Positions 26,840-43,660 of a stretch of DNA of 64,000 bases are shown here, in pieces. The stretch's first letter is position 1. Each line of letters begins with the position of its first letter. The DNA comes from Candidatus Komeilibacteria bacterium RIFOXYD1_FULL_37_29. Its GTDB lineage: Bacteria > Patescibacteriota > Patescibacteriia > UBA1558 > GWA2-36-10. Position numbers and translations under genes: made by a program. The notes beneath the pieces are model-generated. The model did not search any database. It had not been told where the DNA came from and saw only the letters and a program-made list of their open reading frames with translations. The stretch covers positions 323,890 to 387,889 of the forward strand of contig MHKS01000005.1 in assembly GCA_001818495.1 (NCBI GenBank), written 5' to 3'.

Positions 26840-27982
26840 GTGAAAGTATTTGAAACGAAAATTTATCTAAGGTTTTTATCTTGGTTTATTGCCGTAGCTT
26901 TTTGGCCCTTAGCAGCCTTATTTAGTCTCATATATTTTTTTGACCCCATGTTGTTTAGATCGGTATTTTCTGAATCCAGAGATACCGTTTTATTTGTCAT
27001 TTTTGTATCTTTAGCGGTAGTTTTATTACTATCTTTACTAGCTACCAGACTATTATCTCAGTCAATTACTAAACCAATTAAAATATCGGTTTTGGAGTTA
27101 TCTAAAGTAGTGGATAATCTATTCAAAACTATTCAAAATCTCTCTGAGATAACCCAAAATAATAGTAGCCTATCGCAATCTTTATTAGCGAGCAGCCAGA
27201 CGCAACAAGACGGATTAAAGACCGGTAACAAAGCTGTCCTAGATATCGCCAAATCTTTAAACGAAGTAGCTCAAAAAACCAAATCGGCCTCAGTCAAAGC
27301 TCGTAACGTTGATAAATTGGCCGGTGAAAGTGACGAGAAATCAAAAGAAGCTCTGGATAGTTTGGTGGTAGTGAAGCAGCTTTTAACCGAAAATCAAAAA
27401 TTAAGTCAAGCCTTAGATAAATATGCTAGCGATGTCAAAGATGTGGCTGGTCGGGTGGTAGCTTTGGCGGAGACAGTCAAGTTTCTTAGTTTAAATGTTT
27501 CTATTGAAGCCAGCAAAAATTCTTTTAGTGAAGATTTTTCCGAATTGGTTTCTCAAATTAGGGAGTTAAATATTGTCAGTGAACAGGCTGCTAACGCCAT
27601 TGGAGCTTTGGCCTCTAAGATGCAAAAGCAAATTGAGCAATCAAAAGACAGTTCTGATTACCAATGGAAAGAGACCACCAAAACGATTAGTGTGGTCAGT
27701 CAAACTATTATGTTTTTGGGCAAAATTGCTGAAAATATGACCCAAATATCTCAAAATGTCCAAGTAATTGATCAAGAGGCTCAAGAAACCAAAAACGATG
27801 CTCAAGACATTAGTAACATGATCAAGAAATTGAGTTCGGAAGCCAAAGCTCTAGTTGGCAATGTCGATGTAGTGATGCATACGATCAATCGGCAGGTATC
27901 TATTACCAAAGCTTTAAATGTATCTTCATCAGCCCTTAATGCCGTTACTAAAACTCTTAACGATTTAGTAGGAGAAAAATAA
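26840..27982 (+). CDS. Divergent methyl-accepting chemotaxis protein (MCP)-like transducer with two N-terminal TM helices and no periplasmic sensor domain
   Basis: GTG start per the ORF track. Two TMs separated by ~15 aa. A cytoplasmic coiled coil with LSLNVSIEASKNS...FSELVSQIRELN resembles the MCP signalling tip LALNAAIEAAR...FAVVADEVRKLA. Confidence 0.5.
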   Translation: MKVFETKIYLRFLSWFIAVAFWPLAALFSLIYFFDPMLFRSVFSESRDTVLFVIFVSLAVVLLLSLLATRLLSQSITKPIKISVLELSKVVDNLFKTIQNLSEITQNNSSLSQSLLASSQTQQDGLKTGNKAVLDIAKSLNEVAQKTKSASVKARNVDKLAGESDEKSKEALDSLVVVKQLLTENQKLSQALDKYASDVKDVAGRVVALAETVKFLSLNVSIEASKNSFSEDFSELVSQIRELNIVSEQAANAIGALASKMQKQIEQSKDSSDYQWKETTKTISVVSQTIMFLGKIAENMTQISQNVQVIDQEAQETKNDAQDISNMIKKLSSEAKALVGNVDVVMHTINRQVSITKALNVSSSALNAVTKTLNDLVGEK

Positions 27983-27983
27983 T

Positions 27984-28406
27984 ATGGCAGTCAGAACAGA
28001 AAAGTTTATATTATTTTATCTTGGTGGAGAAAAATATGCCTTACCGGCTTTATCGGCTAATCAGTTTATTGAGTTTAGTGATTTAGCTTTGGTGCCCAAG
28101 GCCGATCAGGATATCAGGGGCTTGATTTATCATAACGGCAATATTATTACTATTATTGATTTGAAGAGAGTTTTAAAGATTGTATCACCAAAACGAGAAG
28201 CTTCTCACATGTGTCTTACTTTTGAATACGGTGGGTATTATTATGGTCTATTGGTTGATCAAGGTGATGAGACTTTAGCAGTCAAAAATATTTCCAGTGA
28301 TAGACAAAGGCCAGTGTTTAAAAGATATTTTACAACGCCGGATAAAAAAAGAATTTATATTTTGGATATTGAGGAAGTATTGTCCCAAATAAATATTTAT
28401 GATTAG
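27984..28406 (+). CDS. cheW: CheW-like coupling protein
   Basis: Single CheW domain (FILFYLGGEKYALPALSANQFIEF...IRGLIYHNGNIITIIDLKRVL); good RBS GGAGAAAAA. Confidence 0.7.
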   Translation: MAVRTEKFILFYLGGEKYALPALSANQFIEFSDLALVPKADQDIRGLIYHNGNIITIIDLKRVLKIVSPKREASHMCLTFEYGGYYYGLLVDQGDETLAVKNISSDRQRPVFKRYFTTPDKKRIYILDIEEVLSQINIYD

Positions 28407-29943
28407 TGAAAAATATAAAGATTTATATTTAAGTACGACTAAACAGCAGTTGAAGAAATTGTCGGATCTGTTGTTATATTTGGAGAAAAAGCCTAGCAAT
28501 CAGAATTTGATTGAAAATATTTTTCGTTTAATCCATTCTATGAAGGGAGCGGCGGCTACGATGGGCTATAAAAAAACCGTTGATCTTTTGCATGCTATGG
28601 AATCAGTGGTAGATGGAGCTTATCACAGGGATTTGATTATAGACAGTAAAATATTAAATTTATTTTTTGATACTTTTGGTGTTTTGCAAGAAAATTTTAA
28701 AAGTATTGATAAAAGCAGTCGGGAAATAGTTTTGAATAAACCTATTTTGGCTTTAAAAAATTCATTAGGTCAAAAGCAAAAAAATAAAAAGCCAAACCAG
28801 CCCAGAGAAAAACATATCTTAGGATCTTTGCCTAGCGTAGCTGAGGTCACAATATCGACAGAAAAATTAGATGCCGTCTCTAATTCATTGGATGATCTTT
28901 TGATCAATTTTATGAAAGCGAAAAATAAGGTCAAGGATCTAGGGGATGTGGAATTTTTGAAGATATACGCTGAAAATGATCAGGTTTTGTCCAGTTTGAG
29001 ACGACAGTTGGAAAAAATCAGGATAGTTTCATTAAAAGATGTTTTATCTTCTTTGCCATATTTAGCCAAGGAAATAGCTAGAAATGAAGGGAAAAAAGTA
29101 GAAATAATTATTCGTGATCACGATTTATCTTTGGATAAAGCTATCTTGGATGAGCTCATGGAGATACTTATTCAATTGATAAAAAATGCCGTATCCCATG
29201 GTATTTCTAAGCAGCAAAGCAATGGTAAGGTAGTGATAGATTTTTCATTGTTAGATGACCGGATGCATATTTTAGTTAGTGATAATGGGCAGGGTATTAA
29301 TTGGACGGAGGTGGCTGATTTAGCAGTCAAAAATAAGCTTATCACTCGCCAAAAATTAAAAACCATGTCCCCAGAAGAAAGGAAAAAGGTTATTTTTTAT
29401 GTGGGAGTTTCCAAAGCTCAGACTCTTAGCACAGTTTCTGGAAGGGGTGTGGGTTTGAGTTTAGTCAAGAATAAAATAAGTGAATTAAACGGTTCTATCA
29501 GTGTCAGTAGTTCTTTGGGCAAGGGTACTCAGTTTGCCATTGATTTACCCCAACCCCTATCTGTTTTTCGGGGGATGATTTTTGGAGTTTTGAATTATAA
29601 TTTTGCTTTGCCGTTGGATCACATTGAAAAATTAGTATATTTGGACGAGGTAAAAAATTTTTCTAAAGCCAAGATTTTTACTTATCAGAAAAAAAAGTAT
29701 GAGGTAGTTTCTGTTTTAAATATTTTAAATATCAAAAAATTTGAGCCTCTTTATAAATATGTAGCTTTGATACATTATCAGAATAAAAAATTTGCTTTGC
29801 CAATTTTTCGGCAAGTAGAGGAAGAGGAATTGGTCATGAAAAAAATACCATTGGTTTTAAAAAATAATAAACATATCAAAGGTGTAGCCGTTTCGTCTCA
29901 GGGGCAAGTAATATTAGTTTTAAATATAAGTAGTCTAATCTAA
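28399..29943 (+). CDS. cheA: CheA-like histidine kinase (HPt P1, HATPase_c with N/G1/G2 boxes, C-terminal CheW-like P5; no P2)
   Basis: HPt motif IHSMKGAAATMGY; N-box NAVSHGI; G1 DNGQGI; G2 GRGVGLS; C-terminal CheW-like domain. Confidence 0.75.
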   Translation: MISEKYKDLYLSTTKQQLKKLSDLLLYLEKKPSNQNLIENIFRLIHSMKGAAATMGYKKTVDLLHAMESVVDGAYHRDLIIDSKILNLFFDTFGVLQENFKSIDKSSREIVLNKPILALKNSLGQKQKNKKPNQPREKHILGSLPSVAEVTISTEKLDAVSNSLDDLLINFMKAKNKVKDLGDVEFLKIYAENDQVLSSLRRQLEKIRIVSLKDVLSSLPYLAKEIARNEGKKVEIIIRDHDLSLDKAILDELMEILIQLIKNAVSHGISKQQSNGKVVIDFSLLDDRMHILVSDNGQGINWTEVADLAVKNKLITRQKLKTMSPEERKKVIFYVGVSKAQTLSTVSGRGVGLSLVKNKISELNGSISVSSSLGKGTQFAIDLPQPLSVFRGMIFGVLNYNFALPLDHIEKLVYLDEVKNFSKAKIFTYQKKKYEVVSVLNILNIKKFEPLYKYVALIHYQNKKFALPIFRQVEEEELVMKKIPLVLKNNKHIKGVAVSSQGQVILVLNISSLI

Positions 29944-29948
29944 CAATT

Positions 29949-30428
29949 ATGGGAGATAAAAAAGCAAAAATTTTATTTGTCGACGACGATAATTTTCTCC
30001 GAAAAGTCTATAAAGCAGAACTTAGTGAGCAGGGCTATGATGTTATTTTAGCGGCTGATGGCGAGGAGGGTTTGGAAAAGGCCAAAATAGCTGATCCGGA
30101 TTTAATTATCTTAGATATGATTATGCCAAAAAAGAATGGTTTCGAAGTTTTGACTGAGCTACAAAATGACCACAATACTCAAAACATACCGGTTATTATA
30201 TTATCAAACCTCGGGCAGGAAGATGACATTAAAAAGGGTTTGGATTTGGGAGCGGTTGATTATTTGGTCAAAGACAATATCACCTTAACCACCATTGTAG
30301 AAAAAGTAAGTTTATATTTAAATTCTAAGACCAGATCCAAGGTAGCTAAAATGAAAAATAATCATTCCGAAAAAAAAGAAGACCAACCGGAAGTGAAGGA
30401 TGTGGATAAATCAAACTTAGTCTACTAA
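29949..30428 (+). CDS. cheY: CheY-like single-domain response regulator with a short acidic/basic C-terminal tail
   Basis: KILFVDDDNFLRKV...DLIILDMIMPKKNGFEVL...KGLDLGAVDYLVK: receiver-domain signature residues (DD, D, T, K) all present. Confidence 0.75.
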   Translation: MGDKKAKILFVDDDNFLRKVYKAELSEQGYDVILAADGEEGLEKAKIADPDLIILDMIMPKKNGFEVLTELQNDHNTQNIPVIILSNLGQEDDIKKGLDLGAVDYLVKDNITLTTIVEKVSLYLNSKTRSKVAKMKNNHSEKKEDQPEVKDVDKSNLVY

Positions 30429-30462: not shown

Positions 30463-32148
30463 ATGAGTATTATAAGTGATGAGAAAATTTATAAGATTAT
30501 TAGCAAAATCAGTTTGATTGAACCGAGTGTTTTGGATACGGCTTTGCAAACCGCCAAAGAAAAAAATGAAGATTTTGTAGATTTTTTAATAAAACAAGAA
30601 TTGATAAAATCTGATGAAATTGGCCAATTGATAGCCAATGACTTACATCTTAAATATGTTGACTTAAGTAAAGAAAAAATTGATTTGACGACACTTAATA
30701 CTATTCCAGAAATTGTCGCCCGTCGGCAGAAGCTCATAGTTTTTAAAAGAGATGAAGAGGGAGTAAAAGTAGCTATGGCGAATCCTTATGATTACGGCAT
30801 GATCAAAATGATTGAGAAAAAAGTTGGTGATCGGGTCTTCCCTTATTTTTCTACAGAGTATGATATCAACAATGCTTTTTCTTTTTATAGAAAATCAATT
30901 CAGCAAGAATACGCCGTCAATATCCAGAAGCATGCTATCAAGGCCCAGGGCACAAACGTAGAGTCTGTGCCAGTAGTCAAACTGGTTGATGATGTTTTTT
31001 CTTATGCTTATACCAATCATGCCTCCGATATACACATTGAACCAGAGGATAAAGAAATAAAGATTCGTTTTCGAATAGATGGTCTATTATATGATGTTTT
31101 ATCTTTAAATAAAGCCATTTTGGAATTGATAGTGGCTAGAATAAAAATTTTAGCCAAACTCAGAACCGATGAAAGTCGGTCCGCTCAAGATGGTAAAATT
31201 ATTACTAGAGTTGAGGGAGAAAAAGTGGATATTCGTGTTTCTATTGTACCAGTTACGCACGGTGAAAAAATAGTTATGCGTCTTTTATCTTCCAAGGGAC
31301 GACAGTTTAGTTTGGAAGATTTGGGCATGAATGAACGTGATTTAAAAATAGTTAAAAAAGCGTCCAGTCGACCCTATGGTATGATCTTATCCACTGGACC
31401 AACTGGTTCTGGTAAAACTACTACCCTTTATGCTTTGATCAAACTTTTAAATAATCGTAACATAAATATTTGTACTATTGAGGATCCAGTGGAATATGAT
31501 TTGGAAGGAGTAAATCAGATACAAGTAAATACTGCTACCAATCTTACTTTTGCCCAGGGGCTGAGGTCTTTGCTTCGTCAGGATCCGGACATCATCATGG
31601 TCGGAGAAATTAGAGACGAAGAGACCGCTGGCATTGCTGTCAATTCTGCTATGACTGGACATTTGGTATTATCTACTCTACATACCAACGACGCGGCTAC
31701 TTCTTTGCCTCGTCTTTTGGATATGAAAATCGAGCCGTTTCTGGTAGCCTCAACTGTTAATGTAATCATTGCTCAAAGATTATTGCGCAAAATTTGTATG
31801 AAATGTATTGTCTCTTATACTTTGACTGATCGAGAGTTGGAAGATTTAAAAACGGAAGTCGAGATTAGTCAGTTTTTAGATGTGAATAAAATCAGTGATA
31901 TTCGTTTTTATAAAGGTAAGGGTTGTAAATCTTGCAATAATAGCGGCTATAGCGGTCGGGTAGGTATTTTTGAAGTATTGGAAGTGAGTGACGATATAAA
32001 AGAGCTGATTTTGGCCAGAGCCAACAATGAACAGATCAAGAAAAAAGCTATGGCCAGTGGTATGACCAGTATGTTTGAAGATGGCTTTGAAAAAGCTGTC
32101 TCAGGAAAAACAACTTTAGAAGAAATATTTAGAGTTACTAAACAATAA
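30463..32148 (+). CDS. pilB: Type IV pilus assembly ATPase PilB (GspE family)
   Basis: N-terminal GSPII_E_N domain; Walker A GPTGSGKTTT; Asp and His boxes; tetracysteine CMKC...CKSC zinc motif. Confidence 0.85.
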   Translation: MSIISDEKIYKIISKISLIEPSVLDTALQTAKEKNEDFVDFLIKQELIKSDEIGQLIANDLHLKYVDLSKEKIDLTTLNTIPEIVARRQKLIVFKRDEEGVKVAMANPYDYGMIKMIEKKVGDRVFPYFSTEYDINNAFSFYRKSIQQEYAVNIQKHAIKAQGTNVESVPVVKLVDDVFSYAYTNHASDIHIEPEDKEIKIRFRIDGLLYDVLSLNKAILELIVARIKILAKLRTDESRSAQDGKIITRVEGEKVDIRVSIVPVTHGEKIVMRLLSSKGRQFSLEDLGMNERDLKIVKKASSRPYGMILSTGPTGSGKTTTLYALIKLLNNRNINICTIEDPVEYDLEGVNQIQVNTATNLTFAQGLRSLLRQDPDIIMVGEIRDEETAGIAVNSAMTGHLVLSTLHTNDAATSLPRLLDMKIEPFLVASTVNVIIAQRLLRKICMKCIVSYTLTDRELEDLKTEVEISQFLDVNKISDIRFYKGKGCKSCNNSGYSGRVGIFEVLEVSDDIKELILARANNEQIKKKAMASGMTSMFEDGFEKAVSGKTTLEEIFRVTKQ

Positions 32149-32152
32149 AAAT

Positions 32153-33370
32153 ATGTTATTTGCTTATAAAATTTCTGATGCTAAGAATAAAATAACTCAA
32201 GGAACCATTGAGGCGCCCAGTCGTGCCCAAGCCAGAAATCAGCTGATTTTAAAAGATGGAGCTTTAATATCTTTGGAACCAATCAGTCATAGAAAATCAA
32301 ATAATAATTTAGCCGGAAAGCAATTTTCATTGAGTAGAGTCAAGCTTTTAGAAAGAGTGATGTTTGCCAAACATTTGGCGGTCATGATAAAAGCTGGTAT
32401 GTCTATTGATAGTTCCATTGAGACACTAAGCGACAATTCTTCTCCAGCTATGTCTAGAGTTTTATTTGGTATTTTAAATGATGTGCGCACAGGTAATTCT
32501 TTTTCTTCAGCTTTGAGTAAATATAAACGGGATTTTGATTTATTGTTTATCAATATGGTGGCGGCTGGAGAAAAGGGTGGTAATTTAGCAAAAAATCTAA
32601 ATCTTTTAGCTATTCAACAGCAAAAAACTTATGAGCTTCGTAAAAAAATAAAATCAGCCTCTATTTATCCGACAGTTATAGCTTTGGCTATAGTCGGTCT
32701 AACGGCCGTAGTATCAAAATTTGTTTTACCAAAGATTGTGAATTTTTTTAGTAGCTTAAATGTTGAATTACCGTGGAGCACCAGAATATTAATAATGACT
32801 GCTCAGTTTTTTAGTACTTATTGGTTGTGGGTGGTAGTAATAGCGTTGGTTTTAGTAATTATTTGGGTAACCATGCTTAGGTTTACTGCTGGGCGCTTAA
32901 TCATACACGCTTTTATATTAAGATTGCCAATTTTAGGAAAATTGATATCTAATATGAACCTGGCTTTATTTTGTCGGACTTTGGCTAGTCTTTTAAATAG
33001 TGGTATTACCATTGATCAAGGGCTCCAAATTGTTTCCCAAACAATGACCAGTGAGGTTTATAAACAGCAAACTATACAGGTTTATTATCGTGTTTTAAAA
33101 GGAAATTCTTTGGCTAATTCTATTTCCAACAAAAGATATTTTCCCAGCATTGTTTCCCGTATGAGTATGGTGGGTGAAGAATCCGGTAATTTGAGTGAAG
33201 TATTGGATCATTTGGCAGATTTTTATGAACTAGAAGTGGACAATACTACTAAAAATCTTTCTAGTATGTTGGAGCCAGTACTACTAGTAGTTATTGGTTT
33301 GGCGGTTGGTTTTGTGGCTATGTCTATCATCAATCCTATTTATGATCTAACCAGTAAAATTAGTCCTTAG
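32153..33370 (+). CDS. pilC: Type IV pilus inner-membrane platform protein PilC (GspF family)
   Basis: Two T2SSF repeats and 3-4 TM helices; characteristic ...MVAAGEKGGNL... motif. Confidence 0.8.
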   Translation: MLFAYKISDAKNKITQGTIEAPSRAQARNQLILKDGALISLEPISHRKSNNNLAGKQFSLSRVKLLERVMFAKHLAVMIKAGMSIDSSIETLSDNSSPAMSRVLFGILNDVRTGNSFSSALSKYKRDFDLLFINMVAAGEKGGNLAKNLNLLAIQQQKTYELRKKIKSASIYPTVIALAIVGLTAVVSKFVLPKIVNFFSSLNVELPWSTRILIMTAQFFSTYWLWVVVIALVLVIIWVTMLRFTAGRLIIHAFILRLPILGKLISNMNLALFCRTLASLLNSGITIDQGLQIVSQTMTSEVYKQQTIQVYYRVLKGNSLANSISNKRYFPSIVSRMSMVGEESGNLSEVLDHLADFYELEVDNTTKNLSSMLEPVLLVVIGLAVGFVAMSIINPIYDLTSKISP

Positions 33371-34450
33371 ATGATCAGCTATAAAAAACAATTTGGCTTT
33401 ACTTTATTGGAAGTTTTGTTAATGGTCACTATTTTTGCTATTATTTTGTCTTATTCTTTTTCTTTGTCCAATAGCCAGATTTTTGAAGATGATTTGCACG
33501 CTAAGGTATTAGAAGTATCTGATTTGATAGAAAAAGCTAGAAATAATTCAGCCACCGGTTATCGCGGTGATGTCTGGAGCATCAAAGTGTTGGATAGTGA
33601 TGCCTTGTGTGATAATAGTGGTGATTGTATTTTGCTTTTTAAGGGTAATGATTTTAGTGGTCGAGATGCTATCTATGATTATTTTGTCCAATTTGATCAG
33701 AGTATCACTGGAGTTTATATAAATTCTGATCAGGAAAATGAATTTTATTTTGATTATAGTTCTGGTTGGCTGGCCACTACGACCGCATCTTCTTTGGAAC
33801 AACAATATATTATCTTCAATAATAATGCCGGAGATTCACAATCATTAGTAGTTTCTCCCAGCGGTGCAGTAAATACTTTTGTTTGTGGTGAAGATCAGGT
33901 TTTTGATATTAGTGGTCATGGTTATAATACTGTTAAAATCGGTAGTGATTGTTGGATGGCGGAAAATCTTAACACTGGTGAGATGATTGCCAGTGTCAGT
34001 ACCAGTCCCACCAATGATGGTGATATAGAAAAATGGTGTTATGCTGATTCGTCTGCCAATTGCGATATTTATGGTGGTCTCTATGCTTGGGATGAAGCAA
34101 TGAGCTATGTTACTACGGCTGGAGTCCAAGGCATTTGTCCCAATGGCTGGCATATACCCACTACTTCGGAAGTGAATTTGCTGGATAATTTTTATTCAGC
34201 CAATAATTTAAAAATTGGTGGTAACTCTGGTTTTGATCTTATGGCCGCCGGTGTGAGATTGGAATCATCTCCAGATGTCTATGGTAATATAGACGGCACG
34301 AGCGGTGACGGTGGATCTCTGTGGAGCTCCAATCAAAATGGCAGTAGTGAAGCTTATTATTATTGGTCAGAGGAAAATTTGAGTAATCTGGATCAATTTA
34401 GTGTTGATAAAGATTATGGTTTTAGTATTCGTTGCGTAAAAGATTATTAA
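33371..34450 (+). CDS. Prepilin-type protein (G|FTLLEVLL class III signal) with a C-terminal Fibrobacter-succinogenes-major-paralogous (Fib_succ_major, TIGR02145-like) domain
   Basis: N-terminal KKQFGFTLLEVLLMVTIFAIIL with Glu at +5; C-terminal motifs CWMAENLN, YGGLYAWDEA, GICPNGWHIPT and GFSIRCVKD match the Fib_succ_major signature. Confidence 0.6.
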   Translation: MISYKKQFGFTLLEVLLMVTIFAIILSYSFSLSNSQIFEDDLHAKVLEVSDLIEKARNNSATGYRGDVWSIKVLDSDALCDNSGDCILLFKGNDFSGRDAIYDYFVQFDQSITGVYINSDQENEFYFDYSSGWLATTTASSLEQQYIIFNNNAGDSQSLVVSPSGAVNTFVCGEDQVFDISGHGYNTVKIGSDCWMAENLNTGEMIASVSTSPTNDGDIEKWCYADSSANCDIYGGLYAWDEAMSYVTTAGVQGICPNGWHIPTTSEVNLLDNFYSANNLKIGGNSGFDLMAAGVRLESSPDVYGNIDGTSGDGGSLWSSNQNGSSEAYYYWSEENLSNLDQFSVDKDYGFSIRCVKDY

Positions 34451-34451
34451 A

Positions 34452-35369
34452 ATGTTTAAAATAATATTTAATAAAAATGGTTTTTCACTGGTTGAAGTAT
34501 TGGTGGCCTTGGGTATTTTTGCTGTATTAGCGGCCGGAATTTTTAATATTGTGACCAGCTCTTATAAAAATTTTTATGGTAAAGGCGACAAACAATCTTT
34601 GACACAATTTGCTCAGGAGGGCATAGAAGCGGTTCGCTCTATCCGTGATAATTCTTGGCAGGAAATAGAAAGCGTCGCCGGAGCAGGCAATAAAGGTTTG
34701 GTTAAAACCGATGGCTATTGGAGATTTAGCGGTACTAGTAATACTTTGAGTGCTTTGACTAGAGTAGTAGCCATTACCAATGCCCAGCGCAGTAGCGATA
34801 GTCAGATAGTGACTTCTGGTGGTACTACTGATCCCAATACTAAAAAAGTTACAGTCACAGTATCAAGTACCGGTATTGATGATTATGTTTTGGAAACTTA
34901 TTTGACTAACTGGTCTTATAAAACTTGGATACAGACTGATTGGTCGGGAGTGGGGGCTAGAGAATTTTGGTCAAACTCAGCTATGGCTTCTTCTTCTTAT
35001 AGCAATATCGCTACTTCCACTGGGCAGATAACAGTTACAAGCACCGCCAGCGTCTATGAGCCTACGGCCTATATTTATTCTTCTATTTACAGTATAGAGT
35101 CTGATGATCGGGAACTAAGAAGCGTTGAGGTAGAGCAAAATGTACCAGCTGGTTGTAGTCTGCAAATTACCGTTGAAGCTAGTAATACTACAAATATGGC
35201 TAGCGCTAGCAGTCAAGTTTTTAGTGACACTTCAGCTGGGTATTATGTCAGTTCTACTCCCACTAGTTTAAATGGTAAAAAGTTTTTGAGATATAAGCTA
35301 GATTTGACTTCTTGTAGCAGTCAAAGTGAGGCACCTATATTTTATTCTTTAAGTATTAATTATCGATGA
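34452..35369 (+). CDS. Prepilin-type minor pilin (G|FSLVEVLV), Ser/Thr-rich
   Basis: Class III signal peptide and hydrophobic alpha1 helix; globular domain rich in S/T. Confidence 0.55.
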   Translation: MFKIIFNKNGFSLVEVLVALGIFAVLAAGIFNIVTSSYKNFYGKGDKQSLTQFAQEGIEAVRSIRDNSWQEIESVAGAGNKGLVKTDGYWRFSGTSNTLSALTRVVAITNAQRSSDSQIVTSGGTTDPNTKKVTVTVSSTGIDDYVLETYLTNWSYKTWIQTDWSGVGAREFWSNSAMASSSYSNIATSTGQITVTSTASVYEPTAYIYSSIYSIESDDRELRSVEVEQNVPAGCSLQITVEASNTTNMASASSQVFSDTSAGYYVSSTPTSLNGKKFLRYKLDLTSCSSQSEAPIFYSLSINYR

Positions 35370-36652
35370 TGACTTTAAATAAAAAGGGTTTTTCTTTGGT
35401 GGAGGCCATAATCTATTTGGCTATCGTTGGTATTTTACTAACGGCGGTGATCAGTTTGCATTTGACGCTAGGAGGAACGTCTAGCAAGTTGGTCAACAAT
35501 ATTTTAGCTTCCCGCAACAGGCGTGTGTCTATGGGAGCAATGAACTATTTAGTCAAAAATTCTGATGGCTTATTGAAAGATTTGTCTGGTGATTGTTCAT
35601 CATTTGGAGCTACTCCGCCGGTTTTGGCTTTATATTTTGAGGATGATAATCATTTGCCAGGTACTTGCGTCGAAAGTGGCGGTGGAGTCAGGATAGCAGT
35701 GGCGGATAAAAAAATATCTTTAACTTGCTATCCTAATATGTCTGGTAATGGTTATTATCAAAATTGTTCTACCAGTGTTTATCCAGCCGGCAATGTTTAT
35801 TATCTTAGTTCAGACGATGTAGCAGTTTTAAATAATTCACTAGCCTTTTCTACTTCCACTTCTAGTTCTACAGCCAATAATTTTTTGGCCTTGACCACTC
35901 ATTTAAGTGTTGGTACCTTTGCTGGTCAGCAGGCACGTTTGACAGCTACCTCCACGGCTACTTCAACGGTTATTTTGCGTAATGAAGAAGCTAGTGGGCT
36001 GATCAGCTGGTACAAAATGGATGCCAGTCCAGGTTACACAGTAGATTCTAAGGGTCCAAATAACTTACAATGTGCCGGTGGGTCTGGTGTAACTGGTTTA
36101 ATAAATGGTAGTACCAACGCTTTTGATTTTGAAGCCAGCTCCGGTGATCCAGCGTGTTTTGATGTTAGTCCGCAATCATTTTATTTTAATAATGCTTTTA
36201 CTATTACGGCTTGGGTCAAAGAAGAAAGCAGCGGTGTGGATAGGCAAATACTGGGTATCTCAGATTATACTAATCGCGGTTATTCTTTTTATATAGACAA
36301 TGCTTATCCGATGTTGCGTATCGGTGATAGTAGTACTTATACTGATTATAATGGCACTGGTACAGCCATGACCACTGCTACGGTCTATAATGTAGCAGCC
36401 ACCTATGATTTGAATAATAATAAAATAGTCCTTTATGTTTATCAAAACGGAATTGGTGGTGTAGCGACTACCACTTTTACTACGGCTGCTACCCTGACCA
36501 ATTCTTATAGTAGTTTGTTTATTAGTGATGATGCTTCTGAAACAGCTGGCACAGATGAAAATTTTGATGGAGTAATAGATGAAGTAAGGGTTTACAATCG
36601 TGCTCTGACACCTCAGGAAATTTGGGCTATCCAATCGCAGGGTGCTCCTTAG
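35366..36652 (+). CDS. Prepilin-type protein (G|FSLVEAII) with a C-terminal LamG/concanavalin-A-like (Laminin_G_3) lectin-fold domain; candidate pilus-tip adhesin
   Basis: C-terminal ...FDGVIDEVRVYNRALTPQEIWAIQSQ is the hallmark ending of Laminin_G_3 domains; the start overlaps the upstream stop (ATGA). Confidence 0.6.
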   Translation: MMTLNKKGFSLVEAIIYLAIVGILLTAVISLHLTLGGTSSKLVNNILASRNRRVSMGAMNYLVKNSDGLLKDLSGDCSSFGATPPVLALYFEDDNHLPGTCVESGGGVRIAVADKKISLTCYPNMSGNGYYQNCSTSVYPAGNVYYLSSDDVAVLNNSLAFSTSTSSSTANNFLALTTHLSVGTFAGQQARLTATSTATSTVILRNEEASGLISWYKMDASPGYTVDSKGPNNLQCAGGSGVTGLINGSTNAFDFEASSGDPACFDVSPQSFYFNNAFTITAWVKEESSGVDRQILGISDYTNRGYSFYIDNAYPMLRIGDSSTYTDYNGTGTAMTTATVYNVAATYDLNNNKIVLYVYQNGIGGVATTTFTTAATLTNSYSSLFISDDASETAGTDENFDGVIDEVRVYNRALTPQEIWAIQSQGAP

Positions 36653-36656
36653 TTAA

Positions 36657-37538
36657 TTGTTCGTAATTTGCTATAATATAGTTATGCTCATAAAAATCAA
36701 AGAGGCCTTTAATCTTTCTTACCAGCGCTCTAGCAGTGGTGCTGTGGCTTTGATTTTGGTGATTATGATTACGGCTTTGACCATAGTTTCAGCGGTAGTA
36801 ATTTCTATGGTCAATACCTCCAATCTTATGTCTGCTTATTATTTCAGTGAGGATGAAAAAACATCAGTTGATTTGGATGCTTGTTTAGAAGATGCCCTGT
36901 TTCGTTTAGCCTCCAGTACTACTGCTTCTGGTACTTATTATCTAAATGGAGCCGGAGTCAATTGTTATTATCAGATAGCTTCCTCTATTTCTGGTGGTCT
37001 GAAAACAGTTACCTCTACGGCTAGTAGTACTTCGGATATTGGTTATTGGGAAGATACTATTGTTATGCAAATCAATGTTTCTAGTAGTCCAATTAGTGTT
37101 TACTCTTATAAAAATTTTGACATGTCCTATGCTTCGATTGTTGAGGGTGGTAGTTGTACTGCTACCTGTGGTAATGGTGCGGTAGAATGTGATGAAGTTT
37201 GTGATGATAGCAATACGACTACCGAATCTTGTGGAAATGGTAGTACAGATGTAGGTAAATGTAATGCTGATTGTAGTGCAGTAGTACCAGACGAAGTTTG
37301 TGATGATGGCAATACCAACACCGAAGCTTGTGGTGATGGTGTCAAGCAAACTGGCGGGGCTATTTATTGCAACAGTACTTGCACGGCCGTAGTTACTAGA
37401 AACGAAGCTTGTGATTATACCGGTGCTGAAGAGCCAAGTGATCCGGGTTGTTATTATGGAGATGTTGGTTGCACTATTAGATATAATGGTTGTCGGAATA
37501 GTTGTACTGCTTGCGCTATGTGTGCGATTGAACTGTAA
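36657..37538 (+). CDS. PilX_N-like pseudopilin with tandem Myxococcus-type cysteine-rich repeats (C-x-CGNG/CGDG...ECDDGN...)
   Basis: N-terminal QRSSSGAVALILVIMITALTIV resembles PilX N-domains; the C-terminal half has three CG(N/D)G-x-ECD(D/E)(S/G)N repeats and ~20 Cys. The start may instead be the internal Met at ~36684. Confidence 0.5.
   Translation: MFVICYNIVMLIKIKEAFNLSYQRSSSGAVALILVIMITALTIVSAVVISMVNTSNLMSAYYFSEDEKTSVDLDACLEDALFRLASSTTASGTYYLNGAGVNCYYQIASSISGGLKTVTSTASSTSDIGYWEDTIVMQINVSSSPISVYSYKNFDMSYASIVEGGSCTATCGNGAVECDEVCDDSNTTTESCGNGSTDVGKCNADCSAVVPDEVCDDGNTNTEACGDGVKQTGGAIYCNSTCTAVVTRNEACDYTGAEEPSDPGCYYGDVGCTIRYNGCRNSCTACAMCAIEL
37130..37400 (+). repeat. Three imperfect ~54-60 nt tandem direct repeats inside the CDS, encoding the cysteine-rich repeats
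   Basis: gaagtttgtgatgatagcaat...tgtggaaatggt / gaagtttgtgatgatggcaatacc...tgtggtgatggt read directly. Confidence 0.5.
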
Positions 37539-37572
37539 TTTTATATGGTTAATAAATTATATATTATATGCT

Positions 37573-39309
37573 ATGGCAAAAAATATAATTGGTCTGGATA
37601 TTTCCGATTCTTCTATTGAAGCTCTGTCCTTAGAAAAACATCGGGGAAATTTTGTAGTAGAAGCATATTCTCGTTTTCGTTTGTCGCCGGAAATAGTGGC
37701 TAATGGTCGAGTTTTAGATAAGGAAAAACTCAAGGAAGCTATTGTTAAATTGTTTAACAATGCCAAGCCCGTAGCTTTTGACAAATCACGCAAAGTTTTT
37801 TTATCTATTCCGGAGTCACAAACATTTTCTAAAGTTTTATCTATCCCCAGAAATATCAAAAATAAAGATTTAGAAACAGCGGCTTTTACTCAGGCCGAGG
37901 AATTAATCCCAGAAAATATTAATCGGTTGACCGCTATTATAAAGGTTTTATCGGAAAAAAATGATCAAAAACAGGTTTGTTATGTAGCTGCCGAAACCGA
38001 GGTTTTGCAGGAGTTTGTCGATGTTTTCAAGGAATTGGATATTGAGATAGCTGGTATTACTACTGAAACCACCAGCTCTTTCAATGGTTTGAAAAAAGAT
38101 AAAGATAAAAAAAATACTTTACTTTTAGATTTGGGTGCTAGTACTACCATTGCTTCTGTTTTTTCTGAGGAAGGCCTTGGCTCTAGTATAAATATAAATA
38201 TTGGCGGTAATAATATTACCGAAGCGATTGCCCAAAAATTAAATATTACTCATAGTAAAGCGGAGCAGAAAAAAGTTAAAAATGGTTTGACCTCCACTGA
38301 ATCGGGTGAGATTATGTTGATTTCGCAGGGGCAGCTTCAGCCGCTAGTTGATGAATTAAAGATTTTTGTAAATTTTTGGCAGACATCTACTGGTTTGGTT
38401 ATAGAGCGGGTAGTTTTAATCGGAGGATTGTCTCAAATGAAAGGAGCTGATAAATATTTTGGTGACAATTTAAATTTACCGACCAAAATTGGCGAGCCAT
38501 TTATTGATAAAAGTTCTTTGCCGGCCAAATTGGAGTTTAGCAAGTATATAAATGTTTTGGGATTGGCTAGATTGGCCCAACAGGAAGCTGAAGTTGATTT
38601 TTATAAAAAATTACCAAAAGATTTTGGTAAAAAAACAGATCTTGGCCAAACGGTATTGGTTAAAGAAAATGTGTTTAAAAAATTTTTACGGATTATCAAT
38701 CCACTAAATTTATTAGTAGTGTTTAAAAATAAATATTTCGTGGTAGTCTTGGCGCTAGCAGTTTTGGCAGTAGTCGGATTTTTGTTTAAAGATAGGCTGT
38801 GGCCAGAGCCAGGGCCAATCAGCGTCGAGCAGCTTATAATAATTTCTAATGACGAGACAAAAATAGCAGAAAATTTTGTCGGGGGAGAATATTTTGATTT
38901 TCGTGTGTTTAAATTTTATGACACCGCTACTGACAGCGAATTGCCGGCCGACTATGTGGATAATTTTGCCAACACTTTAAAACGTTTGGAGGCCAACGCC
39001 AACGCCAAGGTGGAGTCTTTGATCAAAGAGTATAATCCTGAGGATTTCTATGTCTTACCTAGGGTAATATCTTATGAGATTATAAGCACCAAACCAACGG
39101 CCGAGGATTATCAGCCCGGTCAAGAATTAAAGGCTGATTTCAACTATGTATTTATGATGGTATCCGAAGAAGAAATCAAGAAAATATTGGTAGCCGAATA
39201 CCCAGAATTGACCAACAAGATCAATACTTTAGCTTATGAAGTAGTAGTCTATAGTCATAGTGAGGGAGGCGAGTATTTTGAAGTTTTGGTTTCAGTTAAT
39301 AAGAGATAG
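37573..39309 (+). CDS. pilM: PilM (actin-like ATPase fold) fused to a PilN-like TM segment and a PilO/periplasmic-like C-terminal domain
   Basis: Start at MAKNIIGLDISDSSIEAL (PilM N-terminus); a mid-protein TM YFVVVLALAVLAVVGFLF; ~150 aa C-terminal extracytoplasmic domain. The track ORF starts upstream at 37411 in the overlap. Confidence 0.6.
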   Translation: MAKNIIGLDISDSSIEALSLEKHRGNFVVEAYSRFRLSPEIVANGRVLDKEKLKEAIVKLFNNAKPVAFDKSRKVFLSIPESQTFSKVLSIPRNIKNKDLETAAFTQAEELIPENINRLTAIIKVLSEKNDQKQVCYVAAETEVLQEFVDVFKELDIEIAGITTETTSSFNGLKKDKDKKNTLLLDLGASTTIASVFSEEGLGSSININIGGNNITEAIAQKLNITHSKAEQKKVKNGLTSTESGEIMLISQGQLQPLVDELKIFVNFWQTSTGLVIERVVLIGGLSQMKGADKYFGDNLNLPTKIGEPFIDKSSLPAKLEFSKYINVLGLARLAQQEAEVDFYKKLPKDFGKKTDLGQTVLVKENVFKKFLRIINPLNLLVVFKNKYFVVVLALAVLAVVGFLFKDRLWPEPGPISVEQLIIISNDETKIAENFVGGEYFDFRVFKFYDTATDSELPADYVDNFANTLKRLEANANAKVESLIKEYNPEDFYVLPRVISYEIISTKPTAEDYQPGQELKADFNYVFMMVSEEEIKKILVAEYPELTNKINTLAYEVVVYSHSEGGEYFEVLVSVNKR

Positions 39310-39399: not shown

Positions 39400-39894
39400 A
39401 TGCAAATTAAACAAAAAGGTTTCACTCTTATTGAGTTGATCATAGTAATAGCTATTATAGCTTTATTAGCGGCTGCCACCTTTGTAGCTGTCAATCCAGC
39501 TAAGCGTATCGGCGATGCCAACAATGCCCAGCGTTGGGCAGATATATCGGCAATTGCTGACGCCTGGCAGACGTATACAGCCGACAATAGTGGTACTACC
39601 GCTACTACAGTTACCAATGGAGTAACTTATTCTATTACTTCATCTACCCCTCCAAGTGGCGCAGCTGTTAATGTTTGTCAGGGTAATACTGGCAATCCTA
39701 CCACCACCTCAGCTTTTGTTAGTTTGGTAGCATTAAGAACAAGCGGTTATATTGGTCAAATACCTTCTGATCCAACTTATGTTGTGGGCGATGGTCGAAA
39801 TACTGGTTATTATTTTTATACTGATTCAACCGGCGCTGTCAAAGTTGGTTCTTGCGAAACCTACAATACTCAAAATGTTGAAGTAGTCCGCTAA
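39400..39894 (+). CDS. pilA: Type IVa major pilin (PilA-like)
   Basis: MQIKQKGFTLIELIIVIAIIALLAAATFVAV: canonical G|FTLIE prepilin signal with Glu5; 164 aa; its own promoter and a strong terminator. Confidence 0.8.
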   Translation: MQIKQKGFTLIELIIVIAIIALLAAATFVAVNPAKRIGDANNAQRWADISAIADAWQTYTADNSGTTATTVTNGVTYSITSSTPPSGAAVNVCQGNTGNPTTTSAFVSLVALRTSGYIGQIPSDPTYVVGDGRNTGYYFYTDSTGAVKVGSCETYNTQNVEVVR

Positions 39895-40035: not shown

Positions 40036-41697
40036 ATGCTAAACAAGCTAAAAAGTAAGTGGTTTTGGATTATATTGGTTATTATAATCTTGGGGCTGAT
40101 AATTATTTTTCAAGTATTTAAGAAAGAAGAGTCCAATTATATAACCGAAAAAACTACTAGAGCTGATATTATTCAGACCGTAGAAGTAACCGGATCTGTG
40201 GAATCAGCCGAAGAAATAGACCTCAATTTCAATCGAGTAGGCACTTTGCAAAATGTATCTGTCACAGCTGGCCAAGCAGTAAAAAAAGGTGATATTTTAG
40301 CCAAGCTGATAGCTGGCGACGCTGCTTCTCAGGTAGCGGATGCTCGGGCTAGTTTGGAGATTGCTAAATTACAATTAGCTGAGCTGTTGGCCGGAGCCAG
40401 TAAGCAGGATGTGGAAGTAACCAAACAAGAGTTGATTAGCGCTCAAACGACTTATCAAACAGCTTTGGATGATTTATCTTATTTAGAGCAAACCAGAAAT
40501 CAGGAAATTACCAACATCAAAGCGGAGACTATCAATACTTTGAAGGACAAACTTTCTACCGCTCAATACTCCTTGGATTTGATTTTTGATGTGATTGATG
40601 ATCCAGACGCTGACAATTATCTTTATGTTAGTGATATAGTATTGCTCAATAATACTAGATGGAATTATCAGAGCACCAAGAGTGCTTTCGTCTCTTTGAA
40701 GGATCAGATTTTAGTAGCTGAAGTAGCCAATGATCAAACTAGCATTTTGACAGCATCTGATGAACTAGAAGATTATTTAGGTGAAGTTCTAGATATTTTA
40801 AATGATACTTTTGATGTGATGACGGTCACAATAGACAATTCTGTTTATACGGAGGCGGTGATTGCAGCTTTTAAGGCCGATATTAGTGCCAACACTACCA
40901 GTATTAATACAGCCATTTCAGCTGTCCAGACTGATAGTAGCAATTTGCGTACTAGAGATTTGTATTATCAGACTCAAATTACTGCCAAGCAAAATAGCAT
41001 TTCTTCTTATAAAATAGCTATGGATTTGGCACAGGCTCGGTTAGATTTAAAAATTGCTCCACCGAGAGATTTTGAAATTTCTACAGCTCAGGCCAATATC
41101 CAAAGGGCTCAAGCTACTCTTAATCGTTATTTGAGTGATTTGTCGGAGACGGCTATTGTTGCGCCAGTAGACGGTATAATAACCGAGGTCAATTTTGATG
41201 CTGGTGAGCAAACCTCGACTGCTAAACCAGCGATTTCTATGATTGGTATCAGCAACATGCAAATAGAAGTCAATGTTCCAGAATCTGATGTTATCAAGCT
41301 AGCGGTGGGTGATCAGGTAGAAATCACTTTGGACGCTTTTTCATCAGATGATAAATTTATTGGAACAGTTACTTTTATTGATCCAGCAGCCACAGATATT
41401 GATGGAGTCATTTATTATGCTACCAAAGTGTCTTTTAATGAAAAAGATGAACGTATTAAATCTGGTATGACCGCTGATCTAACCATCTCTACAGATAGTC
41501 GAGAGGATGTTTTGGTAGTGCCATCTCGAGCGGTTATTTATCGGGAAGATAAAAAATATGTTCAAGTGTTAAATGGGGAAATATTATCAGAAATAGAAGT
41601 CAGTACTGGTCTAAGAGGCGATGGTGGATTAACAGAGATTTTAAGTGGTTTAACAGAAGGAACGGAAGTAGTTACTTTTATAAAGGCTGAAAAATAA
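40036..41697 (+). CDS. HlyD/MacA/YknX-family periplasmic adaptor (membrane fusion protein)
   Basis: N-terminal TM anchor, long coiled-coil region, lipoyl/beta-barrel C-terminal (...VAPVDGIITEVNFDAGE...). Confidence 0.65.
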   Translation: MLNKLKSKWFWIILVIIILGLIIIFQVFKKEESNYITEKTTRADIIQTVEVTGSVESAEEIDLNFNRVGTLQNVSVTAGQAVKKGDILAKLIAGDAASQVADARASLEIAKLQLAELLAGASKQDVEVTKQELISAQTTYQTALDDLSYLEQTRNQEITNIKAETINTLKDKLSTAQYSLDLIFDVIDDPDADNYLYVSDIVLLNNTRWNYQSTKSAFVSLKDQILVAEVANDQTSILTASDELEDYLGEVLDILNDTFDVMTVTIDNSVYTEAVIAAFKADISANTTSINTAISAVQTDSSNLRTRDLYYQTQITAKQNSISSYKIAMDLAQARLDLKIAPPRDFEISTAQANIQRAQATLNRYLSDLSETAIVAPVDGIITEVNFDAGEQTSTAKPAISMIGISNMQIEVNVPESDVIKLAVGDQVEITLDAFSSDDKFIGTVTFIDPAATDIDGVIYYATKVSFNEKDERIKSGMTADLTISTDSREDVLVVPSRAVIYREDKKYVQVLNGEILSEIEVSTGLRGDGGLTEILSGLTEGTEVVTFIKAEK

Positions 41698-41699
41698 TT

Positions 41700-42410
41700 A
41701 TGATTGAGCTAAAGGATGTCCATAAAGATTTTATCAATGGTGATGTAGTCACCAAGGTGTTGCACGGCGTCAGTTTAAAGATAGGCCGGGGGGAATTTTT
41801 GGCTATCATGGGTCCTTCTGGTTCGGGTAAGTCAACCCTCATGCATATCTTGGGTTTTTTGGATACTCTAAGTAGCGGGCAGTATTTTTTTAATAATAAA
41901 GATGTTTCCAGCTTGGATGATGATACTTTAGCCCAGTATCGAAATAAAAAGGTGGGTTTTGTTTTTCAGAGTTTTAATTTATTGCCCAAAACAACTGTTT
42001 GGGAAAATGTCCGTTTGCCCCTTTTATATAGTAATGAAAAAATGGATTCACGGATTATTGATGAAGCTATTAAAAGTGTCGGTTTAGAGCATCGAAGAGA
42101 TCATCTGTCCAATCAGCTCTCTGGTGGTGAAAAACAACGCGTGGCTATTGCTCGAGCACTGGTTAATAAACCGGATATTATTTTTGCTGACGAGCCGACC
42201 GGTAATCTTGATTCTAAATCAGGCATTGCCATTATGTCTATTTTGGCCGAACTTTCCAAAGTCGGCAAAACTGTAGTTTTGGTTACTCACGAGTCTACCA
42301 CAGCTCGCTATGCCAATCGGATCATTACTATTAGAGATGGCTTGATTGTCGGTGATGATAAAAACACTAGTATTATCCGGACCGAGGAAATAAACGGCCA
42401 ATTAAAATAA
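41700..42410 (+). CDS. ABC transporter ATP-binding protein (MacB/LolD/YknY-like)
   Basis: Walker A GPSGSGKST; signature LSGGEKQRVAIARAL; Walker B IIFADEPTGNLD. Confidence 0.85.
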   Translation: MIELKDVHKDFINGDVVTKVLHGVSLKIGRGEFLAIMGPSGSGKSTLMHILGFLDTLSSGQYFFNNKDVSSLDDDTLAQYRNKKVGFVFQSFNLLPKTTVWENVRLPLLYSNEKMDSRIIDEAIKSVGLEHRRDHLSNQLSGGEKQRVAIARALVNKPDIIFADEPTGNLDSKSGIAIMSILAELSKVGKTVVLVTHESTTARYANRIITIRDGLIVGDDKNTSIIRTEEINGQLK

Positions 42411-42413
42411 TTT

Positions 42414-43655
42414 ATGCATCTCGATTTAAGAACATCGATGGGTGTTGTACAGGCATTGAAGCGTAATAAGATGCGCTCTTTTTTGACTTCCTTGGGGATT
42501 ATTATTGGTATTTCAGCGGTGGTTATTATTATGTCGGTTGGTGCGGGGGCTCACTCTTTGATTGCCAATGAAATCAATAGTATGGGCACTGATTTGATTG
42601 GTATTTTGCCGGGAGCCAGTGATGATGAAGGTCCACCAGCGTCAGTTATGGGCATAAATATTACTACCTTAACTTTGGATGATGCTCAGGCGATTGAAAA
42701 AGAAGTAGAAGAAATATCAGGAGCCACTGCTTATGCTCGGGGAGCTTGTAATATCAGTTGGCAGAATAAGACAGAGGATACTAGTTTTGTCGGCGTGACC
42801 GGCAATTACCCGCAAGTAGAATCAGGGGCAGAAGTGGCTCTTGGTCGTTTTATTAGTGAAGAAGAATCTACCCAGATTTCCAAATCAGTAGTTTTGGGTA
42901 GCAGTGTCTCAGAAGCGCTTTTTGGTACATCTAATCCGATAGACCAACGTGTCAAAATAAATAAAGAATCTTTTCGGGTAGTGGGTGTCATGAAAGAAAG
43001 GGGCTCGGCTGGTTTCCAAGATCAAGATGATCAGGTTTTTATGTCACTAATCACTGCTCAAAAATTAATGCTTGGTATCAGTCATGTTAGTATGATTAGA
43101 GCCAAGGTCATTGGCGATTCAGAGCTGGATTTTGTTGTAGAAAAAATAAAAAATGTTTTACGGGAACAGCATGATATTGATAATCCAGCGGAAGATGATT
43201 TTAGTGTCCGGTCACAGGAGCAGTCACTGGATACTTTGGAGAGTGTCACTGGTGCCTTAAATTATTTTTTAGCCATGGTGGCGGCTATTTCGCTTTTGGT
43301 GGGCGGTATTGGTATTATGAATATTATGTTGGTTTCGGTTTCAGAAAGCACTAAAGAGATTGGTCTAAGGAAAGCCGTGGGGGCTACGGCCAAAGATATT
43401 AGTAATCATTTCTTGATTCAGACAATTATGTTGACTTTTTTGGGGGGCATTGTCGGTATTTTAATTGGTGTTTTTGTGTCTCTGATGATTAGTATAGTAG
43501 TTAATTATTTGGGGTATAACTGGGATTATGTTATATCGTTATCTTCCATTTTAATAGCCGTTATTTTTACTTTATTAGTTGGACTTAGTTTTGGTTGGTA
43601 TCCAGCTAGAAAAGCGGCTCGTCTAGATCCGATTGAAGCTTTGCGTTACGAATAA
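42414..43655 (+). CDS. ABC transporter permease, FtsX/MacB-permease family
   Basis: TM1, a large extracytoplasmic MacB_PCD-like loop, then three C-terminal TMs of the FtsX fold. Confidence 0.75.
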   Translation: MHLDLRTSMGVVQALKRNKMRSFLTSLGIIIGISAVVIIMSVGAGAHSLIANEINSMGTDLIGILPGASDDEGPPASVMGINITTLTLDDAQAIEKEVEEISGATAYARGACNISWQNKTEDTSFVGVTGNYPQVESGAEVALGRFISEEESTQISKSVVLGSSVSEALFGTSNPIDQRVKINKESFRVVGVMKERGSAGFQDQDDQVFMSLITAQKLMLGISHVSMIRAKVIGDSELDFVVEKIKNVLREQHDIDNPAEDDFSVRSQEQSLDTLESVTGALNYFLAMVAAISLLVGGIGIMNIMLVSVSESTKEIGLRKAVGATAKDISNHFLIQTIMLTFLGGIVGILIGVFVSLMISIVVNYLGYNWDYVISLSSILIAVIFTLLVGLSFGWYPARKAARLDPIEALRYE

Positions 43656-43660
43656 TAAAT

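Follow-up and report, generated by a model that had tools for sequence, protein, structure and literature searches.

A putative tip-displayed minor pilin combining a J-type pilin head and a LamG lectin fold in a type IV pilus operon of Candidatus Komeilibacteria

Patescibacteria are mostly uncultivated, and the cultivated ones live attached to other microbes. Here we analyse one gene in a 64,000-nucleotide stretch of DNA (hereafter the window) from Candidatus Komeilibacteria bacterium RIFOXYD1_FULL_37_29 (contig MHKS01000005.1, positions 323,890 to 387,889), an ultrasmall groundwater bacterium of this group; its product, which we will call the LamG pilin, joins a prepilin signal and a pilin head to a laminin G (LamG)/concanavalin A (ConA)-like domain. 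The reading we favour, with a probability of about 60%, is that it is a modular minor pilin in a type IV pilus (T4P) of the monoderm type, with a putative glycan-binding LamG module displayed at the tip. T4P are the best-supported attachment and host-recognition organelles of Patescibacteria (PMC11623550), and pilins of this general design have been described before. In the survey of Raynaud et al. 2021 (bioRxiv 10.1101/2021.01.27.428410 / PMC8179133), modular pilins consist of an IPR012902 pilin moiety connected by a short linker to an extra domain that is not T4P-specific; PF13385 is among the carbohydrate-binding modules in the fifteen commonest architectures, with several representatives from candidate phyla, and IPR011871 is also in the architecture list. 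The LamG pilin fits this definition, a class III signal and pilin moiety being followed by a PF13385 lectin-fold domain, and is thus a further example of a class already catalogued in 2021. What we add to that catalogue, which records domain composition only, is i) the assignment of the pilin moiety to the J class; ii) a conserved four-gene, H-I-J-K-like cassette in these Patescibacteria; and iii) the contrast between a fixed LamG module and swappable modules on the neighbouring subunits. The gain is incremental, because a pilin moiety with a grafted lectin module is an established design.

Several individual systems come close to the LamG pilin without matching it. The first-pass annotation of the window had appealed to lectin-fold minor pilins that act as tip adhesins elsewhere, and a precedent does exist in Streptococcus sanguinis PilC (PDB 7OA7/7OA8; Shahin et al. 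2023, PMC9934059), whose lectin module binds glycans and which has been modelled in a tip complex with the GspI-like PilA. The LamG pilin is not an orthologue of PilC: the two have no detectable sequence homology, and the pilin moiety of PilC is unstable and unusually short, with an Ig-like module separating it from the lectin, whereas here a full J-class head of ~200 residues is joined directly to LamG. In S. sanguinis PilB (PDB 7B7P), the grafted module is instead a protein-binding vWA domain with a metal-ion-dependent adhesion site. GspJ, XcpW, EpsJ, and TTHA1219 share the J fold class and the place in an H-I-J-K series, but a canonical J subunit carries no lectin graft; moreover, unlike in GspJ systems, the pilin half has no TIGR01711 or T2SSJ match, no secretin is seen in the window, and the system is not a type II secretion system (T2SS). 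Within the Patescibacteria, a 2024 preprint on Nanosynbacter lyticus TM7x (Saccharibacteria T4P-1) implicates lectin-like minor pilins in host binding (PMC11623550). TM7x PilX1 resembles the LamG pilin in being a patescibacterial minor pilin with a C-terminal beta jelly roll, which is similar to L-type lectins and carbohydrate-binding modules (CBMs); it is the largest in its locus and is proposed by its authors to be a tip protein, but it is set apart by their description of a protein with no recognisable PilD signal and a jelly roll missed by the NCBI conserved-domain search (PMC11623550), whereas the signal here is canonical and the Pfam LamG match clear. Finally, domain 4 of AbnA (5HON) offers an experimentally verified carbohydrate-binding module, in which arabinan chains lie in an aromatic, Trp-lined concave cleft with a Kd of 1.4-11 uM (PMC9110388).

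The tool results place a prepilin signal, a J-class head, and a directly fused LamG jelly roll in a single product encoded within a T4P assembly operon. The gene divides as follows.

35366..36652, + strand: whole gene of the LamG pilin, a modular minor pilin of 428 residues including an 8-residue leader (from the list of open reading frames, ORFs; stop codon 36650-36652)
35366..35389, + strand: leader peptide MMTLNKKG, ending in Gly(-1), with predicted prepilin-peptidase cleavage before Phe9 (N_methyl, PF07963)
35390..35989, + strand: pilin module, residues 9-208, alpha-1 helix and beta-sheet head of the GspJ/PilW-class fold
35990..36649, + strand: LamG/ConA-like jelly-roll module, residues 209-428 (Pfam Laminin_G_3 core 36167-36622)

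The N-terminus reads MMTLNKKG/FSLVEAIIYLAIVGILL (the slash marks the predicted cleavage site) and has the sequence features of a prepilin: a short charged leader, Gly(-1), a hydrophobic Phe+1, and Glu+5. The resulting class III signal, MMTLNKKG/FSLVE, scores 26.9 bits against a Pfam N_methyl cutoff of 21.2, and in an alignment of 68 homologues E13 (+5) is invariant and G8 (-1) and F9 (+1) are conserved in at least 90%, so that the cleavage motif recognised in the first-pass annotation stands. The LamG domain proposed there is also supported, with a Laminin_G_3 (PF13385) match over residues 268-419 (72.4 bits against a cutoff of 27.6, E 6e-20, positions 10-150 of the 151 in the model) and a jelly-roll fold in the structural model; the C-terminal string it had quoted as a LamG hallmark does occur, in alignment with the last positions of that Pfam model. 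Another candidate family, the haloarchaeal fimbrial subunit TafC (NF052521; the tafi are archaeal Tat-dependent fimbriae), was rejected, with 19.5 bits against a cutoff of 410 over the LamG region only.

The protein is identical (100%) to P0001, a hypothetical protein of Candidatus Komeilibacteria bacterium RIFOXYC1_FULL_37_11, and has ~73 full-length homologues of like length and with the same pair of domains (40-67% identical) in Komeilibacteria, Parcubacteria, Nomurabacteria, and unclassified Patescibacteria. Six cysteines are invariant among the 68 aligned homologues, four in the pilin half (77, 101, 121, and 134) and two in the LamG half (236 and 264, probably forming a disulfide), and the linker between the modules, RNE(Q/E)xxGL, is short and conserved. 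The preceding pilin gene ends within the start codon of the LamG pilin gene (ATGA), an overlap of stop and start that suggests joint expression of the two. The extreme C-terminus, EIWA(L/I)QSQG (36617-36643, residues 418-426), is almost invariant in all homologues, far above the rest of LamG; comparison with the C-terminal plug of PilY1 suggests that it may serve as an interaction motif. Nearly invariant too are two alternating Ser/Thr beta strands in the pilin head, STSTSSSTA (residues 162-170, 35849-35875) and TATSTATST (residues 193-201, 35942-35968), which could serve as an inter-subunit sheet interface or as O-glycosylation sites.

An AlphaFold2 model of the LamG pilin, computed from the homologue alignment (mean predicted local distance difference test, pLDDT, 88.9; predicted template-modelling score, pTM, 0.76), consists of an alpha-1 helix at residues 11-65 and a beta-sheet head extending to residue 208 (strands 86-208; pLDDT mostly 85-95 over helix and strands), after which come a beta sandwich (212-410) and a terminal helix (416-426). 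The long helix followed by a beta-sheet head is the arrangement expected of a type IV pilin, in which ~20 hydrophobic residues make up the N-terminal half of alpha-1. The globular head has the J-type fold of the GspJ/PilW class, and the LamG module is a two-sheet jelly-roll beta-sandwich of the Laminin_G_3/ConA-like superfamily, joined directly after the last strand of the head. Foldseek agrees with the model, the top matches including tetanus and botulinum Hc, CBM40 sialic-acid modules, a phage tailspike, and S. sanguinis PilC. A profile of 20 pilin-module sequences matched PDB sequences in the N-terminal helices only. The same module profiled against 1.84 billion representative proteins gave 18 strong matches, 15 of them full-length (422-447 residues) and the others fragments, followed by a second tier containing the pilin module alone (P0099, 212 residues; P0101, 209 residues) or with a Cys-rich tail (P0100 and P0103). 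All four of these relatives lack LamG, and since the bare ones stop exactly where LamG starts in the LamG pilin, the module looks as if it had been grafted onto a J-type pilin moiety. The bare relatives retain Ser/Thr motifs similar to those described above (FATTT and TASTT), and a comparable strand, KTVTSTAxSTSD, occurs in the core of the gene that follows the LamG pilin gene, ORF4, at ~36990-37030.

The genes around the LamG pilin are ordered MCP-CheW-CheA-CheY (MCP, methyl-accepting chemotaxis protein), PilB, PilC, pilin 1, pilin 2, LamG pilin, ORF4, PilM-like protein, a 164-residue putative major pilin, YknX, and a MacB-type ATP-binding cassette (ABC) transporter. Those of the chemosensory and pilus modules are listed here.

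26840..30428, + strand: MCP-CheW-CheA-CheY chemosensory genes, adjoining pilB upstream (Pfam and synteny)
30463-32148, + strand: assembly ATPase PilB (T2SSE 439.8 bits, with MshEN)
32153-33370, + strand: platform protein PilC (T2SSF 186.8 bits)
33371..34450, + strand: minor pilin 1 (H position), prepilin N-terminus and C-terminal FISUMP/Fib_succ_major domain (PF09603 78 bits, TIGR02145 104 bits, N_methyl 22.1 bits)
34452..35369, + strand: minor pilin 2 (I position), prepilin N-terminus, conserved core of ~200 residues, and C-terminal extension of ~140 residues with no domain assigned (N_methyl 31.7 bits)
36684..37538, + strand: ORF4 (K position), N-terminus SSG/AVALILVIMIT without Glu5, conserved core of ~135 residues, and Cys-rich tail (orthologue alignment)
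37573..39309, + strand: PilM-like actin-fold protein with a C-terminal extension (PilM_2 110.3 bits; orthologues 556-614 residues)
39400..39894, + strand: putative major pilin, 164 residues (N_methyl 36.6 bits; GspG weak at 32.1 bits, under the curated cutoff)

The first-pass annotation had spoken of two neighbouring decorated pilins, and all three partners of the LamG pilin are in fact decorated: pilin 1 with FISUMP, pilin 2 with its C-terminal extension, and ORF4 with its Cys-rich tail. The Fib_succ_major domain of pilin 1 is, we presume, the one designated IPR011871. The ComGE and GspI matches of pilin 2 are weak and due to the N-terminal helix. The mechanical start of ORF4 is a TTG at 36657, the likely one an ATG at 36684; the orthologues read G/A(I/V)ALILVIMIT, without Glu5 in 27 of 27. 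No significant match to ORF4 was found in Pfam, NCBIfam, or PDB sequences, and its identification as GspK/PilX by sequence was rejected, a PDB profile search giving chance-level matches only (SRP72, E 0.03) and the NCBIfam GspK model matching 1 of 19 members (E 0.036). The Cys-rich part of its product, encoded at ~37150-37538, contains repeats of the type CGNG..C..CDDGN and a weak DUF4215 match (E 0.066; E 1.6e-4 in the orthologue from locus L016), and in other species this tail is absent or replaced by DUF2341 and Laminin_G_3. The mechanical ORF of the PilM-like protein begins at a GTG at 37411 and overlaps ORF4 (37411-37572), but both the Pfam match and the lengths of the orthologues point to the ATG at 37573 (MAKNIIGLDISD) as the true start.

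Related loci were collected by a scan of a genome collection and two exact-protein look-ups, giving 36 loci, and the gene order is kept in essentially all those of sufficient length. Synteny of the cassette extends over ~30 species-level genomes, and its association with the PilB, PilC, and PilM genes recurs in ~30 loci. The G/F..xE signal is retained throughout by pilin 1, pilin 2, and the LamG pilin, so that three Glu5 subunits are followed by one without Glu5, with the J-fold protein third, as in the GspH-I-J-K and PilH-I-J-K tip-priming arrangements. This third place in the cassette, the GspJ-class pilin fold, and the Glu5-less fourth member give new support to the tip position suggested in the first-pass annotation. 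CheA lies 5′ of pilB in every related locus reaching that far, which suggests dedicated chemosensory control of the pilus; in the window its domains are arranged Hpt-HATPase-CheW. The putative major pilin, single in the window, is present in 1-3 tandem copies in related loci.

The cassette members differ sharply in how much they vary. In 28 full-length orthologues the LamG pilin is 421-466 residues long (coefficient of variation, CV, 0.02), whereas the orthologues of pilin 1 range over 159-511 residues (CV 0.43), those of pilin 2 over 306-1232 (CV 0.35), and those of ORF4 over 136-604 (CV 0.39). Conservation in these three is limited to the N-terminal 130-200 residues, and the variable remainder is, depending on the species, FISUMP, DUF2341, a further Laminin_G_3, or DUF4215-like Cys repeats; pilin 2 orthologues carry DUF2341 and/or Laminin_G_3. 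Pilin 1 orthologues may lack FISUMP (~170 residues) or carry DUF2341 and LamG in its stead (511 residues). The median identity of the LamG pilin to its orthologues, 45%, is ordinary for the operon (PilB 71, PilC 56, major pilin 52, ORF4 47, pilin 1 44, and PilM 40). The hypervariability expected of an adhesin in the first-pass annotation is thus not seen at the between-species level, and in domain architecture the reverse holds, although within the family the LamG half is nonetheless more variable than the pilin half (mean pairwise identity 41% vs 58%), with an entropy maximum at residues 286-345 inside the jelly roll. These comparisons are between species and per domain, just 3 sequences on 2 contigs being at least 90% identical and the next relative 65-67%. 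Other loci (L008 4855-9963, L023 12185-13279, and L011 14123-15659) display plasticity in gene content as well: two tandem pilin 2 paralogues in L008, an extra 364-residue pilin between ORF4 and pilM in L023, and one to three tandem major-pilin genes in relatives.

How the LamG pilin might work can be put together largely from better-known machines. Prepilin peptidase would remove the 8-residue leader, and the mature subunit would join the three adjacent minor pilins in the H, I, and K positions in a priming complex that starts filament assembly on PilB, PilC, and PilM and then stays in place as the pilus cap. Were the four-pilin complex to remain at the tip in this way, LamG would be displayed there. 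By analogy with its closest structural relatives, it could act as a lectin or receptor-binding module contacting a surface glycan, probably on the envelope of a host or partner cell or in an environmental polysaccharide, and the exchangeable modules of its three partner subunits may add or tune specificity. Counted in support of this reading are the glycan- and receptor-binding structural matches, the variability of residues 286-345, and the synteny of the cassette.

We wish to be equally explicit about the points that weigh on the other side: i) the tip location of the LamG pilin, which is modelled on GspHIJK, PilHIJK, and PilABC, and its putative lectin or adhesin activity are both suggested by analogy; ii) the protein yields no match to TIGR01711 gspJ at E <= 0.01 in NCBIfam, and its pilin module none to T2SSJ at E <= 10 in Pfam, and it is therefore classed as J-like by fold and gene position rather than assigned to the GspJ sequence family; iii) ORF4 is taken to be a K-type subunit from its missing Glu5 and the gene order, with neither sequence nor fold in support; iv) the conserved LamG residues are mostly framework and aromatic core, and for this reason we propose no binding site; v) neither a Peptidase_A24 prepilin peptidase (PilD) nor PilT was found among the window ORFs scanned; and vi) the LamG pilin is the architecturally fixed member of its cassette, which is as compatible with a structural as with an adhesive role.

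The last of these points leads to the alternative that survives best, namely that LamG has a part in the structure or assembly of the tip complex, which it would stabilise or cap through protein-protein contacts, or where it would dock the neighbours' bulky variable modules, leaving external ligands to the modules of pilin 1, pilin 2, and ORF4. We regard this as possible but unlikely. The length and architecture of the LamG pilin are indeed fixed in ~28 species while all three neighbours swap modules, the short linker RNE(Q/E)xxGL is conserved, and the almost invariant EIWALQSQG is what one would expect of an interaction motif; many relatives of the LamG fold (neurexin, laminin LG, the pentraxins, and NTNH) act through protein-protein contacts, and in type IVa pili strand augmentation by a short motif at the PilY1 C-terminus stabilises PilK (bioRxiv 10.64898/2026.09.18.752573). 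Against this, the best structural matches bind glycans or receptors, the central LamG strands and loops (286-345) vary more than any other part of the protein, as suits an outward-facing surface, and distant relatives manage with a bare J-type pilin, so that LamG is dispensable for the core fold.

Between the adhesive and structural roles lies a broader proposal, to which we attach only a low probability, that in Patescibacteria of the Komeili-, Parcu-, and Nomurabacteria type the pilus tip is a four-subunit toolkit in which the fixed J-type LamG serves either as the primary lectin for a widespread envelope glycan of host or partner cells or as the tip hub, while the H, I, and K modules set the host range. 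If this were so, the partner specificity of uncultivated episymbionts could be predicted from their genomes by reading this cassette. More immediately, the fixed LamG and its three module-swapping neighbours may help to rank the genes that determine partner specificity, and a conserved, confidently modelled putative tip subunit with a lectin fold provides, in its soluble module of ~220 residues, a concrete reagent.

Two further readings of the LamG pilin are less likely. Instead of an adhesive or motility pilus, the cluster could encode a short pseudopilus serving DNA uptake (Com-like) or protein secretion (T2SS-like), with the LamG pilin as the GspJ/ComGF equivalent and LamG engaging DNA-associated or cell-wall material. 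The J-class fold is common to T2SS pseudopilins, pilins 1 and 2 have weak ComGD, ComGE, and GspI matches and the putative major pilin a weak GspG match, and the PilT retraction ATPase is missing from the ORFs scanned; but the Com and Gsp matches are all far under the curated cut-offs and due to the N-terminal helix, no T2SS secretin, ComEA, or ComEC gene is seen in the window, the syntenic PilM-type protein and the MCP-CheW-CheA-CheY genes flanking the cluster resemble those of chemosensory-controlled pili, four subunits with bulky extracellular modules are ill-suited to a structure confined to the periplasm or wall, and the comparable TM7x pili serve host binding and twitching, not competence (PMC11623550). 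We therefore consider a pseudopilus improbable. Still more improbable, to the point that we give it hardly any weight, is a pilus-borne enzyme (a GH16-type glucanase or lyase) cutting host or matrix polysaccharide, since the LamG module lacks an ExDxxE-type catalytic motif and any conserved acidic pair outside the framework strand FDGxIDE, Pfam gives Laminin_G_3 and no glycoside hydrolase family, and the top structural matches are non-catalytic binding modules.

The surroundings of the pilus operon deserve brief mention. On one side, positions 100-26701 of the window form a large surface-glycan biosynthesis region encoding a Wzy_C/O-antigen-ligase-like protein, five GT4 glycosyltransferases, several methyltransferases, a CDP-glycerol glycerophosphotransferase, a flippase, an initiating sugar transferase, a PMT_2-like mannosyltransferase, a GT2 protein, and an asparagine synthase. 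On the other side, the major pilin is followed at 40036-44899 by a YknX-like periplasmic adaptor, an ABC ATPase, and two MacB/FtsX permeases; YknX is 3′ of the major pilin in almost every related locus reaching that far, followed by the ATPase and permeases in the two loci with called genes. Ten third-party-annotated records of metagenome-assembled genomes that contain this Patescibacteria-type operon (L008, L012, L014, L016-L019, L024, L025, and L027) bear the title 'uncultured Gammaproteobacteria bacterium', probably through taxonomic mislabelling.

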